Virus genome (UHGV): UHGV-0008389
From: a virus
Strand: one strand, 5' to 3'
Length of the DNA stretch: 43,755 nt
How positions within the stretch are numbered: the first letter of the stretch is position 1; the number at the start of each line of letters is the position of its first letter. The notes under the pieces are model-generated. The model did no database searches, was not told where the DNA came from, and was given only the letters and a program-made list of their open reading frames with translations. A program made the translations under genes and the position numbers. This document shows, in pieces, positions 623-34,027 of this stretch.

Positions 623-1822
623 ATGGTCGTGAGCGTTTTTATGTTTGACTTGACGTTTATTATCTTTATTTTATCTTCCATCCCTGTATTTTTTGTTTTT
701 TGGATTGCCGGAAGGTTTAAGAATGAATTAGTTGCAGACTCTTCTTTTGGGTTGCGAGGTGATGACAATTTATCTTGCCTCAGGGGGTTGGCGGCTGTCA
801 TGGTCGCCCTTCACCATTCAGTATATATGTTCAATTATCTTTATCATGATAAATGGAGTATATTTTTGAATGATGGATTTACGGCGAAGTCAAGCAACAA
901 TAGTTTATTGGCTATTGCATATTTTGGCTCCATTCCAGTCATGATATTCTTTATGATTACAGGGTTTCTCTTCTTTAGAAAAATAATAAACAAACCAATA
1001 AACAATGCTGCAATATTTTTGTCGGCGCGAGTTAAGAGACTAATTCCAATGTATGCATTCATGGTGCTTTGCGTTGTTTGTGTTTCTGAATTAATTCGAC
1101 CCAACGATAGCATTGGGATTCACAACATTATTGTTGAAGTTGGCCGATATTTTACGTTTGGTATAATTGACCCTAATGGCCTTACACCTTCTATTCATGG
1201 ATCTTTAATCGTTGGCGGGGTTATCTGGACTCTTGCATATGAGTGGGGTTTTTATATAATTTTACCATATATCTCTATGTTCGTAAAATCAATAAGAGAT
1301 GCATGTTTTTCGGTAATAATTATGCTTTTCTCGGTATTAATTGCTTACCGCCAAGGGCTTATCAGTGAAATGTTTGCCACTCTTCTCTTTTGCTTTATTG
1401 GTGGCTTTGTTGCAGCGCTAGCTTCTGGTTACCTAAAGAACAACGCTATCAAACAAGCCAATAGCGTAATGATGACAATTGTGTACCTTTTATCGCTTAT
1501 TGCTGTTGCATACTGGCAGGACTTTAACATTTACAATGTTTACATAGTGATTCCGCTATTTTTGTTTTTTTTAAGTGCGTGTACTGGCTCCAAAGCTTTT
1601 CAAATTATAAACACCAAGTTCTTCAAGGTGGCGGGTTCTGTAAGTTACAGCATTTATTTGATGCATGGCTTAAGCATGGTAATGACCTTTAATTTCATTT
1701 CAAGCTCATTAAACTATACTGAGTTTGCAGCAATATCTTTATCAATTTGTGCAATGATAAGTTGCTTAACTTACTTATACATTGAAAAACCCGCAATGAA
1801 AAAACAGTTTAAAAACAATTAG
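623..1822 (+). CDS. Integral-membrane acyltransferase (acyltransferase-3 family, OafA/Oac-like O-antigen acetylase); lysogenic-conversion moron
   Basis: 399 aa, multiple hydrophobic segments, N-terminal LRGLAAVMVALHHS motif typical of acyltransferase-3; strongly AT-rich; lies between attR and the tail-fibre genes on the opposite strand. Start may be the second ATG at 641. Confidence 0.75.
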   Translation: MVVSVFMFDLTFIIFILSSIPVFFVFWIAGRFKNELVADSSFGLRGDDNLSCLRGLAAVMVALHHSVYMFNYLYHDKWSIFLNDGFTAKSSNNSLLAIAYFGSIPVMIFFMITGFLFFRKIINKPINNAAIFLSARVKRLIPMYAFMVLCVVCVSELIRPNDSIGIHNIIVEVGRYFTFGIIDPNGLTPSIHGSLIVGGVIWTLAYEWGFYIILPYISMFVKSIRDACFSVIIMLFSVLIAYRQGLISEMFATLLFCFIGGFVAALASGYLKNNAIKQANSVMMTIVYLLSLIAVAYWQDFNIYNVYIVIPLFLFFLSACTGSKAFQIINTKFFKVAGSVSYSIYLMHGLSMVMTFNFISSSLNYTEFAAISLSICAMISCLTYLYIEKPAMKKQFKNN

Positions 1823-29916: not shown

Positions 29917-30203
29917 GACTTAATCTTCCCCTCCTTCAGCAGTATCGCCTGCGTCCTGATCACGCCTTCGAGGTGGTAAAGTCTGGCGTCTTTGTTGTCG
30001 AGATTATGGGTGCGTCGGTCGATTTCATCGTGACACGCGCTACAAGCCCATGCGCCGATCAGGTCGTCAGGCTTCATTCCAGTTCCGCAAATTCCAGCCA
30101 TCCGGTAATGTGCCAGAACTGTAGTTTCAGGATTACCATTGCATACGCCGTAAATACGTACCTGGCATTCTCTGTTGCGCGCTTCTTTGCGTAGATTGGC
30201 CAT
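29913..30203 (-). CDS. Cys-rich nin-region protein (tentative DUF1364-like)
   Basis: 96 aa with conserved-looking Cys/His pattern (C-x-V-x-x-C ... C-x-x-C-H). Confidence 0.45.
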   Translation of the reverse strand: MANLRKEARNRECQVRIYGVCNGNPETTVLAHYRMAGICGTGMKPDDLIGAWACSACHDEIDRRTHNLDNKDARLYHLEGVIRTQAILLKEGKIKS

Positions 30204-30925
30204 TAAGCAGCCTCCCCTGTTACTTTCAGCATTCCGTTATCGAGCAGCTTTCTGGTCAGCCACTGTTGGCCACGCCCGGTGATTTTTGTGGTGAACGATA
30301 TCTGTATTCCGTGATTTGTGTTGACCGCTGTTTCTTTCACTGTGAAATAGCCGCGATCCATATATTCCTGCATTGGCACATTGCGCCGGGAACCTGAAGC
30401 AATAAGTATTTTGTGATCGCGCATCCACGCAAACAGTTTGTTTGGACCAATACCGACAACCTTTGCAAAGTTTCCAATCAAAATTCCGCTGGCCTCGCCA
30501 ACGCGATCGGCAAACTCAACTTTAGGTGCGGCAATTGCGAGCTGGTTTTCCAGTTGCATTTTCTGCTCAGCAAGATCAGCAGCAAGGCGCAACGCTTCTG
30601 GTAGCGTTTTGGGGATATTAACCGCAGCTTCTTCAAGCTCTCGCCAGCGGTCAACAAGGCGAGCGGTGAATTCCGGAGACAACTGGGCAACAACGACAAT
30701 ACTGTCTCGCTTACCTTGTTCGCCTTCGAAGACGTAATGCTCGTACTGAACATTGAACCCTAAGTTATTGATTCTTTCGGAAACCTCAATTTGAGGAAGC
30801 CGGATAACACCATTTTTAGCCAGCGTTTCGATGGTACGTTTCACATTGTCATGACGCTTACCAACCAACTCAGCGATTTCAATGCTTGTCATTTTGATGG
30901 CATTGCCATTTATTAACTCATTCAT
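30203..30925 (-). CDS. Antirepressor-like protein (Rha/AntA-like N-terminal domain plus KilA-C-like C-terminal domain)
   Basis: 240 aa; N-terminal MTSIEIAELVGKRHDNVKRTIETL; C-terminal VGEASGILIGNFAKVVGIGPNKLFAWMRDHKIL resembles KilA-C. Confidence 0.65.
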   Translation of the reverse strand: MNELINGNAIKMTSIEIAELVGKRHDNVKRTIETLAKNGVIRLPQIEVSERINNLGFNVQYEHYVFEGEQGKRDSIVVVAQLSPEFTARLVDRWRELEEAAVNIPKTLPEALRLAADLAEQKMQLENQLAIAAPKVEFADRVGEASGILIGNFAKVVGIGPNKLFAWMRDHKILIASGSRRNVPMQEYMDRGYFTVKETAVNTNHGIQISFTTKITGRGQQWLTRKLLDNGMLKVTGEAA

Positions 30926-31130
30926 CGTCTTCTTCCTCGTACATTGAGCTATTCGGATCGCTCATCAGTTCTGCACAGCAGTGCTCACACACGTGAACTT
31001 CCAGCACATGCAGCTTCTGACCGCAATTAGCGCACGTTAAAGCCCGCTCGACGCTTTCTTGTTCGTAACTTCGATTTTGGTCAATCACCTTGTTTTCCTC
31101 GCACGATGTCTTAGCCACCGGATATCCCAC
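30918..31130 (-). CDS. ninF: NinF-like protein
   Basis: C-terminal [47 protein letters not shown] matches lambda NinF as recalled; true start may be an internal GTG. Confidence 0.7.
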
Positions 31131-31267
31131 AGGTGAGCCGTGTAGTTGAAGGTTTTTACGTCAGATTCTTTTGGGATTGGCTTGCGTTTATTTCTGGAGC
31201 GTTTCGTTGGAAGGTATTTGCAGTTTTCGCAGATGATGTCGGTGAAACTTCGTCGCTGTCGCCTCAT
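31085..31267 (-). CDS. ninE: NinE-like protein
   Basis: Internal-Met product [60 protein letters not shown] matches lambda NinE as recalled. Confidence 0.8.
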
Positions 31268-31794
31268 GCCGCCCTCCTGACGCCCTGCCCGATCGCCATC
31301 AATGCCGCTTTGGATACGGTAGTAAACATCCGTCGAGGACTGATGAACGGTCGCCAAATCAGCAGCATGGATCCTTTGCTGTTTCCCTTCTTCTCCAGCC
31401 CTGTCGATGGTTCGATAAAATTAATCCGTCCATCAGTGATAATGCGAACTTCGTCAACACTCTCCAGAGCCTTGCTGAACCATCCGACAGACATATCCTC
31501 TGGCACAAGCATAACTACCGTCTGTCGCTGTTGTATGCACTGCTCAGCGGCTTTTTCCACCCACGGCCTGATATTGCTGTACGGTGGGTTATTCCAGATT
31601 GCACCGTGGCTTATCCACTCAGAATTTAGCGCGTCGTCGGCCTCAGTTAACCAGTGAGCGCACAGAGCATTTTTGTCGCTCGCTGCCGAATCCAGCCAGA
31701 ATCCAAACTCAATATCCAGTGCATCAAAAAGCCAAAGCGGCGTTTGCCAGCAGTCTCTAACTTCTTTTGGTGTTTCTGATTTATGTTTAATCAT
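31264..31794 (-). CDS. Phage Dam-like DNA N6-adenine methyltransferase (orphan)
   Basis: 176 aa; NPPY motif ([10 protein letters not shown]) typical of N6-adenine methyltransferases; no cognate restriction gene of classical type adjacent. Confidence 0.8.
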
Positions 31795-32318
31795 TCAACC
31801 CTCGCATATTGTCCGTGATATTTGTTGATAGCCTCACTGGCAACCAAACCAGCAAGCTCAAGATCTTCATAGAACCCAAAATGCAACCGGCCAAAATCTG
31901 TGCGCACTTGAACGGCCCATTTATTTTTTTGCTTGTTCCATAAAACATTTTTTATTCCAGAACGGCTATTGCACTTAGTTTTCTGATTTCGGCTGTTTGC
32001 TATCCGGCTTGCCTCCCTAAGATTTTTTGGGGAATTGTCCAGCCTGTTTCCGTTAATATGGTCAATATTTTTCAATGGCATTCTTTTGTTGTGCAGCGCA
32101 AAAACAACTACGTGAACAAACATCTGAATGCCTGCAAAACACACCTGTCTATACCCAGATCCATTTATCGATGTTTTAATTTCATCTCCGGCCCGGTGGC
32201 TGTGGTTGGGGTGTTTTAGCGAGTCCTTTTTGTATCTGACTGTATCTCCGTCTAAATACAGATAATCCTCAATAAGCCGATACCTATCTGACGCTGGCGT
32301 ATTTGATTTGATAGTCAT
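31791..32318 (-). CDS. HNH homing endonuclease with AP2-like DNA-binding domain
   Basis: HNH motif IDHINGNRLDNSPKNLREASRIANSRNQ and C-terminal AP2-like WNKQKNKWAVQVRTDFGRLHFGFYEDLELAGL; AT-rich; start taken at the internal Met (MTIKSNT...) abutting the ninB stop. Confidence 0.75.
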   Translation of the reverse strand: MTIKSNTPASDRYRLIEDYLYLDGDTVRYKKDSLKHPNHSHRAGDEIKTSINGSGYRQVCFAGIQMFVHVVVFALHNKRMPLKNIDHINGNRLDNSPKNLREASRIANSRNQKTKCNSRSGIKNVLWNKQKNKWAVQVRTDFGRLHFGFYEDLELAGLVASEAINKYHGQYARVE

Positions 32319-32755
32319 GCAGCCCGATCTCCCCATCGCGCTTTCCATTCGAGAGCTAGTCGCGCTTCGTCTGACCACTTAACGCCACGCTCTGTACCGA
32401 ATGCCTGTATAAGCTCTAATAGCTCCGCAAATTCGCTTACACGCATCCTGCTGGTTGACTGGCCTATTACCACAAAGCCATTCCCGGCAAGGTTAGGAAC
32501 AACGTCCTGCTGCTTTAAGGCTGCGGTAAACACACACTTCCAGCTTTCTGCATCCAGCCAGCGACCATGCCATTCAACCTGACGCGAAACGTCACCAAGG
32601 CAAGCCCAAAGCTTCCGATTTTGGTCTAAGCTGCGGTTGCGTTCCTGAATGGTTACTACGATTGGTTTGGTTGGGTCTGGAAGAATTTGCTGTACTGCGT
32701 GAATAGCGTTTTGCTGATGTGCCGGAGATCGAATTTCAAAGGTTAGTTTTTTCAT
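32315..32755 (-). CDS. ninB: Recombination protein NinB
   Basis: MKKLTFEIRSPAHQQNAIHAVQQILPDPTKPIVVTIQERNRSLDQNRKLWACLGDVSRQVEWHGRW... near-identical to lambda NinB as recalled. Confidence 0.9.
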   Translation of the reverse strand: MKKLTFEIRSPAHQQNAIHAVQQILPDPTKPIVVTIQERNRSLDQNRKLWACLGDVSRQVEWHGRWLDAESWKCVFTAALKQQDVVPNLAGNGFVVIGQSTSRMRVSEFAELLELIQAFGTERGVKWSDEARLALEWKARWGDRAA

Positions 32756-32828
32756 GACTTCCCTCTCCCCCAAATAAAAAGGCCTGCGATTACCAGCAGG
32801 CCTGTTATTAGCTCAGTGATGTAGATGG

Positions 32829-33119
32829 TCATTGCCTTACCTCCATAAGCGCCCTATTAATAAACGCCGTCATTGGATTTGCACATCCCCACCCCGTACC
32901 ATCTGGATTTCTTTTAATTGGCTCCTTCTTCACTTTGCGTTTTGCATAAATAACCGTCTTCCACTTACGCTCAACAACACTCAAATACCCTTGTTTCACC
33001 ATATGCCTTGCTGCTTGAGCGATTCTGTTATTTGGTATTCCGGTAATCAGAGCTAATTCATGTGGGGAGAATTGTTCATGAGTTTTCAGATATTCCAGGA
33101 TGATTTCTTTTCCAGTCAC
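32829..33119 (-). CDS. ren: Ren-like protein
   Basis: 96 aa beginning MTGKE, same length and position (downstream of the replication genes) as lambda Ren; moderate similarity only. Confidence 0.55.
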   Translation of the reverse strand: MTGKEIILEYLKTHEQFSPHELALITGIPNNRIAQAARHMVKQGYLSVVERKWKTVIYAKRKVKKEPIKRNPDGTGWGCANPMTAFINRALMEVRQ

Positions 33120-34027
33120 GATCTGCTCCTGTAACTATCCCATGTAAACGCAAGGGTGCATCCGCCGCCATCATTCATCCTGTCAATAACACGCTCACCA
33201 ATGAATGCAGACAGTTCATCTTTGCTCTGGTTGCTAATCAGGATTGTTGGCTTCATGTATTCATATCTGGTGTTGATAATTTCGAACATGATTAGCTTTT
33301 CAGCATCACTGCCGAACTGCACGCCAACCTCATCGATTATTAACAAGTCAGGATGCGTAAATTGCCTAATGACTTCTTCTTCAGTTCTGGTTGCGGCCTT
33401 AGACCATGTTGATTTGTACTCTCTGGCAATTTTCAACGCAGTGGTAAATATCACAGAGCTTTGATGCTCGATAATGGCGTGCCTAGCGATAGCCAGTGCA
33501 AGGTGGTTCTTTCCAGTTCCAGGCTTACCACACATGACCAGTCCGCCACCTTTTTGAAGGCGTTCAGGCCACTTACTGGCATATGCCTGGCATACCTTAA
33601 GAACTCGCTTTGCATCATCGTTAACAGGCTCATAATTCTGAAGAGTGCAATTTTTGAACCTCTCTGGAATATTGAGAGAATTCAACAAATATTCAATTTT
33701 TGATTGTCTTGCTCTTTGTTCTGCCTGCTCACGTTCAATCTCTTTCTTACGAATTTTCTCCTCAAGGCACTGTGGGCACTCAGATTTACTTGAAGTAATT
33801 CTTTTTCCTGAGATGGTCAGATATTTCTCATAGGAAGTATATTTACCGTGTTTCTCGCACTCTTCCACTGTGCTGGTAACTGACATTCCATCTGATGCTG
33901 ATCCAATTTTGCTAAACTCAAGTTTCTGTTTCAGATCAGAAATGTCATTGATTTTTGAGTCTACAAGTTGCCTTTGCAGTGCCAGATTGTAACCATTTGT
34001 CGTATTCATATTCACTCCTGCGCCCAT
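33116..34027 (-). CDS. DnaC-like helicase loader (replication protein)
   Basis: 303 aa; Walker A GKPGTGKNHLALA and IstB/DnaC-like layout; immediately downstream of O. Confidence 0.8.
   Translation of the reverse strand: MGAGVNMNTTNGYNLALQRQLVDSKINDISDLKQKLEFSKIGSASDGMSVTSTVEECEKHGKYTSYEKYLTISGKRITSSKSECPQCLEEKIRKKEIEREQAEQRARQSKIEYLLNSLNIPERFKNCTLQNYEPVNDDAKRVLKVCQAYASKWPERLQKGGGLVMCGKPGTGKNHLALAIARHAIIEHQSSVIFTTALKIAREYKSTWSKAATRTEEEVIRQFTHPDLLIIDEVGVQFGSDAEKLIMFEIINTRYEYMKPTILISNQSKDELSAFIGERVIDRMNDGGGCTLAFTWDSYRSRS

Follow-up and report, generated by a model that had tools for sequence, protein, structure and literature searches.

The virus genome UHGV-0008389, a 43,755-nucleotide (nt) stretch of one strand that is referred to below as the window, carries in its nin region a small HNH endonuclease gene lodged between the recombination gene ninB and the gene for a phage Dam-type methyltransferase, here called dam. 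How did this gene come to lie there, and what, if anything, ties it to the methyltransferase beside it? A first-pass annotation, made from the letters of the sequence, had proposed a free-standing homing endonuclease combining an HNH_3 motif with an AP2-like DNA-binding domain, inserted between the two genes, and had left room for a functional link between endonuclease and methyltransferase. Profile searches bear out its coordinates and gene content, returning NinB, HNH_3, Dam (PF05869) and NinE, and the core of that proposal, a free-standing, homing-type HNH-AP2 endonuclease, appears sound at the level of sequence. Our preferred reading, to which we give a probability of roughly 70%, is that the gene belongs to a cassette encoding a free-standing HNH-AP2 homing endonuclease, and that this cassette has its home in phage dam (PF05869) genes, at their 5′ end.

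Alignment with phage 434, in which the site is empty, shows that the insertion lies within the 5′ end of dam and not at a gene boundary. The window and phage 434 are identical through ninB, the ATGA at its end and the next 22 nt, and they rejoin at GACTGCTGGCAAACG (DCWQT), where the motif GACTGCTGG encodes DCW. Between these points, 10 nt of the 434 dam (ACACGACAAG, dam nt 27-36) are replaced by 537 nt of cassette-specific DNA (31756-32292, minus strand), a net gain of 527 nt. The insertion point lies after dam codon 9, and the positions of the junctions, followed in alignments with phage 434 and across 17 IMG/VR loci (both readable in 14), are exact to the single base. The first 26 nt of the endonuclease open reading frame (ORF; 175 amino acids [aa in what follows], 31791-32318, minus strand) are nt 1-26 of the 434 dam; this stub (ATGACTATCAAATCAAATACGCCAGC, encoding MTIKSNTPA) occupies 32293-32318 on the minus strand. 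The cassette itself supplies HNH codons 10-175, a TGA, an overlapping ATG and a rewritten 13-codon dam leader of the MIKHK type (31756-31794, minus strand), which stands in place of the native MTIKSNTPAHDK. A start of the form MT[IDE][KR]SNT is common to four dam genes that have no HNH, from phage 434, the Erwinia phages Eho49 and phiEt88, and the Klebsiella phage VLCpiS13e; the stub is therefore the native leader of dam and not a part of the endonuclease gene proper. An insertion relative to related nin regions, as proposed in the first-pass annotation, is therefore upheld, with its site moved from the boundary between ninB and dam into dam.

The way in which the cassette is seated leaves each of the two genes with a start signal. 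Each end of the endonuclease gene is an ATGA overlap: its ATG (32318-32316), described at first pass as abutting the ninB stop, overlaps the ninB TGA (32317-32315), and the dam ATG (31794-31792) overlaps the TGA of the endonuclease gene (31793-31791). In empty-site phages, a GGAG ribosome-binding site in the 3′ end of ninB (annotated in 434) serves the native dam start; being fused in frame to that start and the following bases of the 26-nt stub, the endonuclease gene inherits both this ribosome-binding site and the ATGA overlap with ninB. The restart ATG of dam is preceded by a GAGG Shine-Dalgarno sequence at 31800-31803, within the last HNH codons, and downstream of the cassette dam remains one complete ORF. 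Comparison with the 434 Dam protein shows that the window Dam is chimeric, with the cassette leader joined to a 434-type body. The endonuclease ORF ends in TGA and dam restarts at the overlapping ATG, an arrangement that is neither intron- nor intein-borne, and within 30800-33200 no Rfam match to an intron or ribozyme reached its gathering score. No promoter-like site was found in the same interval, so that the gene would be read from the early-right operon transcript. An insertion sequence or transposon was ruled out as well: neither terminal repeats nor a target-site duplication were found flanking the insert, and its sole ORF is the HNH endonuclease, with no transposase.

Among near-identical relatives, the HNH gene is a rare insertion that is present or absent at one fixed site. 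Searched with 1.9 kb of sequence around the gene, the phage database gave matches in 426 records; in 425 of these the best one is at least 90% identical, and in the best-covered records the flanks are 97-98% identical to the window. The HNH part is covered by none of the 426. This comparison with related nin regions yields clear insertion signatures, not the same gene in a conserved context, in keeping with what had been proposed at first pass. The phage database contained no copy of the HNH gene at all (best protein identity, 38%), and the rewritten leader was absent from it too. In complete Escherichia coli genomes, by comparison, the gene was found at 43 places in 34 of 5426; dam follows it in all 30 of the matches listed, and NinB precedes it in 28 of these 30. 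The uninterrupted 53-nt dam 5′ end was found at 2015 places in 1502 of the 5426 genomes, with up to four empty-site copies per genome. Where this dam type is present in E. coli, ~2% of loci are thus occupied and ~98% are empty.

The rewritten leader travels with the HNH gene. This is seen in a relative (P0003, on contig L006) in which the HNH is 78% identical to that of the window and lies behind an unrelated DUF1367 gene. Here the HNH gene is again followed by dam with an ATGA overlap, and this dam is 48% identical to the window dam and begins MIKHKSQTPIESRDCW, the same type of rewritten leader as in the window (MIKHKSQTPIESRD). At the nucleotide level, identity between the two loci is 75% for the HNH gene, 81% over dam codons 1-16 (13 of the leader and 3 for DCW) and 54% for the dam body, which indicates that the leader belongs with the HNH and not with dam. 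The L006 HNH begins MTDKS; the nearest HNH-free dam leaders are those of Eho49 (MTDRSNTAP) and VLCpiS13e (MTDKSNTP), and the gene 5′ of the Eho49 dam is homologous to the gene 5′ of the L006 cassette. The MTDKS start matches the native leader of that dam clade, and the arrangement of native stub plus substitute leader therefore recurs in a second clade. The substitute leader is itself a diverged dam leader, with ~75% DNA identity, by hand count, to the VLCpiS13e leader from the upstream ATG.

Surveys of the leader in larger collections gave the same picture. Of 23 IMG/VR contigs with the rewritten leader, 19 have an HNH tail directly 5′ of it, which is of the window type on 15 and of the L006 type on 4; HNH remnants precede it on 3, and on 1 the junction is clean. 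The L006-type tail, junction and leader are thus repeated on four contigs. In all 14 IMG/VR copies with both junctions readable, the native-leader stub is kept and the rewritten leader follows the cassette. In E. coli, the leader was found in 42 genomes, and the 34 HNH carriers appear to be included in these (an overlap checked on the entries listed). Of ten E. coli leader junctions listed without an adjacent HNH gene, 7 keep HNH fragments, 2 have a decayed HNH (frameshifted in VREC0864; frameshifted, without its first 42 nt and with an IS100 element upstream in 503440), and 1, in TW10590, is clean. The idea that the MIKHK leader is a natural dam allele that simply occurs beside the HNH was mostly rejected, with the HNH or a remnant of it on 22 of the 23 IMG/VR contigs and at all but one of the E. 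coli junctions that were read.

More distant members of the clade were found at dam as well. A relative that is 50% identical in the HNH (P0007, on contig L047) lies in a ribonucleotide-reductase context between a thioredoxin gene and a PF05869 dam; this dam is 45% identical to that of the window, the HNH/dam overlap is TAATG, and the HNH has 32% guanine plus cytosine (GC) compared to 41-42% in its flanks. HNH members of at least 50% identity accordingly occupy the position directly 5′ of a PF05869 dam, and they do so in three settings that are unrelated to one another. Exchange between homologous flanks is insufficient to account for this, but a nuclease recognizing the conserved start of dam could. 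Beyond this range, a 46%-identical relative adjoins a Glyco_hydro_108 (endolysin-type) gene, and relatives of 35-38% identity in the phage database lie beside holin genes or elsewhere in T5-like phages. The copies of the window type also have four different upstream contexts, namely a 434-type ninB tail, a second ninB allele, a NUMOD4-HNH gene followed by a ninB tail, and unrelated sequence with a GTG start.

The HNH protein looks functional, judging from its substitution pattern, its invariant residues and its predicted fold. The nuclease core (residues 67-110; 31989-32120, minus strand) is matched by Pfam HNH_3 (E = 4.6e-11) and displays a cysteine-free, HNN-type pattern (DH...DNS...NLRE...N) that follows the box pattern (DH, DNx, NLRE, xN) which PMC2248197 gives for Xanthomonas phage endonucleases of the HNN-AP2 kind. 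The catalytic and metal-binding residues of this HNH-superfamily domain are intact, and every column that is invariant among the homologues is kept in the window protein (H69, D86, H87, N95, N99, L100, R101, N108). The ratio of nonsynonymous to synonymous substitution rates (dN/dS) between the window and L006 copies is 0.09, which implies long-term purifying selection on the protein. As for the AP2-like domain (residues ~121-170; 31809-31958, minus strand), the Pfam AP2 profile did not match the window protein or its C-terminal 68 aa even at E ≤ 10, and a sequence search of PDB chains with the window protein returned a chance match alone (E = 0.94). The domain is instead indicated by homologues and by modeling: 11 of the 27 homologues in the alignment carry PF00847 opposite residues ~121-170, and an AlphaFold model built on the homologue alignment (predicted local distance difference test score [pLDDT], 89.7) resembles I-HmuI (PDB 1u3e) plus an AP2 domain, with three strands forming a sheet packed on a helix. 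The HNH-AP2 architecture suggested at first pass is thus supported by the predicted fold and by homology, with the AP2 half lying outside the reach of a profile match on the window sequence itself. In the model, residues 1-10 have a mean pLDDT of 67 and no secondary structure precedes residue 9; the N-terminus borrowed from dam is probably harmless to the nuclease.

Comparison of occupied loci revealed signs of both spread and decay. Across 15 of them, the mean identity of the HNH gene is 99.2% compared to 98.0% for the adjacent dam body, and sequence further out is often unalignable. In E. coli Br_190_kylling, two prophages carry the gene (L045 2432-2959 and L046 2899-3426) within a shared 2664-bp block of 99.7% identity, which spans an upstream HNH-AP2 gene, ninB, the HNH gene and dam, reaches into ninE, and has 4 of its 8 mismatches within the HNH; beyond this block the sequence partly differs. 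Several HNH copies are broken beside an intact dam, either by nonsense mutations (a stop at codon 24 in L048, a form present in many assemblies, and at codon 5 in L050) or by frameshifts (L049, L051, L005 and L014, the last also without its first 42 nt). Deletion scars of at least three kinds were observed as well. In E2 and PK12, a deletion between CTATCAA repeats at both ends of the HNH gene left a 14-codon mini-ORF; in FDAARGOS_944, the last 27 nt of the gene are kept; and in E308, L3Cip3, TB354 and W444, NinB ends in VE followed by a stop, which is the C-terminus of the HNH itself. Together, the decayed copies and scars represent the cycle of invasion, decay and loss expected of a selfish endonuclease gene.

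Based on this anatomy, a homing cycle can be proposed. During lytic growth or on induction, the HNH gene would be transcribed as part of the nin region, past a terminator-like hairpin 5′ of ninB (32780-32803, minus strand) at the position of the annotated terminator of phage 434, and would be translated from the initiation signals of dam. The enzyme would then nick or cut cassette-free dam alleles, most likely at or near dam nt 27-36, and phage or host recombination would repair the break from a cassette-bearing copy, copying the cassette in. The left crossover would fall within the native leader stub, which would account both for the agreement of the stub with the resident dam clade and for its difference in length, 9 codons here and ~4-5 in L006; the right crossover would fall at the conserved DCW-coding motif. 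Carrier alleles would be immune, with the native leader split and the downstream copy rewritten. After spreading, the gene would decay and then be deleted, leaving scars. A more specific proposal, which we offer tentatively and hold at somewhat below even odds, is that the element practices a leader swap: it would take the start codon and ribosome-binding site of its target and donate a rewritten leader with its own Shine-Dalgarno sequence and ATGA restart, the leader would be the immunity determinant that removes the recognition sequence, and the clade would be specialized in parasitizing PF05869 dam genes in phages of unrelated types.

Several points weigh against the homing reading or against parts of it. 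We infer nuclease activity and the target site from sequence comparison, and the target is placed solely by where two alleles differ. The cut site need not lie in the leader, given that cleavage far away from the endonuclease gene is frequent among the free-standing enzymes of T4 (PMC2988022). Where dam is already shared, ordinary swapping of nin blocks among lambdoid phages could spread the cassette, and the 2.7-kb block of the two Br_190_kylling prophages fits homing and ordinary recombination alike. In TW10590 (L009 ~1490-1510) and in the IMG/VR contig L063, the MIKHK leader is joined cleanly to the end of ninB (...GGCTGCATGATTAAGCAT), which could reflect either precise loss between the ATGA repeats or an allele that naturally has this leader and no HNH; it is the single observation out of keeping with a leader that always accompanies the HNH. 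Finally, the L006 and L047 comparisons are each drawn from one short contig, although the L006 arrangement recurs on the four IMG/VR contigs noted above.

The adjacency of HNH and dam also raises the possibility that the two proteins form a functional pair, either restriction-modification-like or with a methylation-gated nuclease, in which the methyltransferase protects carrier DNA, hence both the adjacency and the translational coupling. The physical side of this link is real: every copy of the clade down to 50% identity is followed directly by a PF05869 dam, whose start overlaps the HNH stop, in three unrelated contexts, and the methyltransferase occurs without the nuclease but the nuclease never without the methyltransferase, the asymmetry expected of restriction-modification. 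As a partnership, however, it fits less well than dam as a homing site, given that HNH copies with stops, frameshifts and deletions lie beside intact dam genes, that dam stands alone at the 2015 places noted above, leaving ~98% of E. coli loci with this dam type without the HNH, and that no restriction-enzyme model was matched in PADLOC, where the HNH weakly matches a 'homing endonuclease' model and Dam matches 'orphan methyltransferase' models. The first-pass statement that the methyltransferase has no classical restriction partner also agrees with Pfam, PHROGs and PADLOC searches, in which no restriction-enzyme-like neighbor was found. Moreover, more distant HNH_3-AP2 members lie beside holin or endolysin genes or elsewhere, with no methyltransferase annotated alongside. 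Characterized members of the phage Dam family methylate GATC, and E. coli has its own Dam acting on GATC; if the window Dam does the same, nearly all cellular DNA would already be protected. GATC is not conserved at the junctions across contexts, and a conserved junction GATC as a methylation-gated target was rejected on this ground. A functional pair would also give the rewritten leader no role. We consider it improbable, and classification as a Type II pair, in which a restriction-type nuclease is maintained with its methyltransferase, was rejected.

It is conceivable, if unlikely, that the HNH gene merely rides along as a passenger: a single event of illegitimate recombination would have brought it in, and the mosaic recombination of lambdoid phages would have shuffled it since, with no current homing. 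Lambdoid nin regions are strongly mosaic (see also PMC2629481), many HNH copies are already inactivated, and the shared block of the two-copy genome needs no nuclease; for recent movement within E. coli prophages, such shuffling could suffice. However, flank recombination cannot explain the same cassette and leader at a 48%-identical dam behind a non-homologous gene (L006), nor a 50%-identical HNH 5′ of a 45%-identical dam behind thioredoxin (L047). A passenger would also not be expected to have a dN/dS of 0.09, indicative of long-term selection on the protein, to retain intact catalytic residues in the window copy, or to be less diverse than the dam it occupies. Alternatively, the nuclease might mainly serve the phage, whether by degrading lambdoid competitors, be they phages or prophages (exclusion), or by raising recombination within the nin region, with spread of the cassette as a by-product. 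In T-even phages, free-standing endonucleases are known to cause marker exclusion (PMC2988022), targets of this type are abundant in E. coli, with up to four empty-site dam copies per genome, and the gene lies among recombination functions, with ninB next to it and rusA further downstream. Frequent pseudogenes and deletions argue against a sustained advantage, the frequency is low at ~2% of loci, and the cleavage-and-repair mechanism would be the same as in homing, so that the difference is one of emphasis. We regard a primary benefit to the phage as very improbable.

The kind of element described here is known, and its seating in the target is a modest new variation; the advance lies in anatomy and mechanism, not in a new system. 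In lifestyle it resembles MobA-MobE of T4-like phages, which are free-standing HNH endonucleases with intronless homing, patchy presence and co-conversion of flanks (PMC2988022; see also PMC2790892). Like these, the window gene encodes a small HNH nuclease with a C-terminal DNA-binding region, has no intron or intein, is patchily distributed and starts in an overlap with the upstream stop; the start/stop overlap at mobE/nrdA, UAAUGA, has been read as translational coupling (PMC2988022). Unlike them, it uses the start and the first 9 codons of its target, carries a replacement leader and an AP2-like module, resides in a temperate lambdoid host and is known here from sequence. I-HmuI of SPO1 is a nicking enzyme in a group I intron with NUMOD and helix-turn-helix modules, whereas the window protein has an AP2-like module and no ribozyme was found at its locus. 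The HNN/HNH-AP2 endonucleases of the Xanthomonas oryzae phages Xp10, OP1 and Xop411 share with it the two-domain layout, the box pattern and a history of gain followed by degeneration, but they are scattered through lytic genomes, and the passages describing them mention no single target gene or substitute leader (PMC2248197).

Other precedents resemble the window locus in how the endonuclease is placed within a coding region. Gene 31 of the Salmonella phage epsilon34, also a P22-like/lambdoid phage, has an HNH fused in frame to the N-terminus of the resident eaE; the passage on it mentions no restoration of the interrupted gene (PMC2629481), in contrast with the window, where dam is made whole by the donated leader and the stop/start overlap. 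In ShiLan, an HNH likewise lies in a phage DNA methyltransferase gene, that of an actinophage, without intron or intein and with a usable methylase frame, a likeness of arrangement; there, however, it lies in mid-methylase and in another frame and is read through as an extra loop, whereas the window HNH comes first, in the same frame, and stops before dam restarts (PMC11855218). MobE in nrdA of the Aeromonas phage Aeh1 (Friedrich et al. 2007, as cited in PMC2988022) also lies inside a coding region whose function survives, but as described there nrdA is split into two polypeptides that reassemble, whereas the window exchanges ~13 N-terminal residues of a single full-length Dam. None of these named precedents combines a borrowed start codon, a donated rewritten leader, and a stop and restart that keep the target as one ORF. 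In the literature set searched, which was incomplete, we found no description of the leader arrangement or of this nin-region HNH gene, and a search of it on characterized phage Dam enzymes of the PF05869/TIGR01712 family returned nothing directly usable.

Free-standing homing endonucleases are thought to shape phage mosaicism and, to our knowledge, most natural ones have no known target. The anatomy of this locus gives a short candidate target, the 10 replaced nt of the dam leader and their surroundings, with matched susceptible and immune alleles. It also illustrates a simple way to occupy a coding region without splicing, by borrowing the start of a gene and returning a rewritten one, and the same arrangement may be overlooked elsewhere given that gene callers see just two adjacent ORFs. 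These results bear on the evolution of the nin region in prophages of E. coli and Shigella, including Stx phages with the same dam, and HNH-AP2 enzymes for which a site is defined might find modest use as reagents for nicking or cutting DNA.

Around the cassette, the minus-strand gene order is ninB, HNH, dam, ninE, ninF, an Ant/Rha antirepressor gene, ybcO and rusA. The ninB gene (32315-32755, minus strand) encodes an Orf-family recombination mediator (Pfam NinB, E = 1.1e-54; phrog_72), and ninE (31085-31270, minus strand; Pfam NinE, E = 5e-43) is the downstream neighbor at which the ordinary nin region resumes. The dam gene (31264-31794, minus strand) encodes a phage Dam-type N6-adenine methyltransferase of 176 aa with full-length matches to PF05869 (E = 1.1e-65; 220.9 bits, cut-off 28.1) and to the NCBIfam equivalog TIGR01712, phage_N6A_met (262.2 bits, cut-off 97.05); its catalytic motif IV is NPPY (residues 69-72, nt 31579-31590). 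In PHROGs, the HNH belongs to phrog_99, 'HNH endonuclease' (6e-43), and the methyltransferase to phrog_111, 'DNA methyltransferase'. The HNH gene had been called distinctly AT-rich at first pass. Its GC content of 41.7% does stand out against its immediate neighbors (~50% for ninB, dam, ninE and ninF), but not against the phage as a whole, being at the 18th percentile among 528-nt segments of the window, whose mean is 45.3%. RefSeq already annotates the gene generically as 'HNH endonuclease'. In cassette-bearing loci in RefSeq (L002 19474-20001; L003, L008-L014), the Dam coding sequence begins at an ATT located 3 nt 3′ of the ATG, which gives a 1-nt overlap with the HNH stop and leaves the annotated proteins without the first Met of the rewritten leader.

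Taken as a whole, the window is a prophage with lambdoid regulation, a sheathed-tail (myovirus-type) structural module and an O-acetyltransferase gene. The latter (623-1822, plus strand), near one end of the window, encodes a 399-aa homologue of O-acetyltransferases/O-antigen acetylases (phrog_3333, 3e-44) and suggests a serotype-converting prophage of the Shigella/E. coli type. The structural module (1-25000) includes the large terminase, portal, protease, major head, tail sheath and baseplate wedge genes and is almost without a nucleotide match among 50,697 phage records, the best being a Vibrio phage with 13% coverage and 70% identity. With a nearly unmatched structural module and a nin region 97-98% identical to that of many lambdoid phages, the prophage is strongly mosaic. 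The Ant/Rha-type antirepressor gene (KilAC and pRha domains; 30203-30925, minus strand) lies between ninF and ybcO, where phage 434 has ninG, indicating another variable slot in the nin region.

While examining related prophages, we also observed other endonuclease genes at and near the same position. In E. coli UMNF18 (L007 1902-2504), a different endonuclease of 200 aa, with NUMOD4, HNH_3 and I-HmuI NUMOD-like domains, is located ~30 nt before the ninB stop; this gene reads the last 30 nt of ninB as its own C-terminus, and the dam there keeps its native leader. On the IMG/VR contig L017 (upstream of 3001), the NUMOD4-HNH gene and a window-type HNH stand in tandem between ninB and dam, which suggests that the ninB/dam junction is a repeated landing site. 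Two further HNH_3+AP2 genes, one of 203-215 aa between the replication genes and ninB and one of 188 aa between ninF and ninG, were found in the nin regions of related prophages (L002 21014-21625; L045 1116-1727; L048 1241-1888; L007 3731-4297; L046 1102-1668). The nin region thus appears to collect homing-type endonucleases at several gene boundaries.

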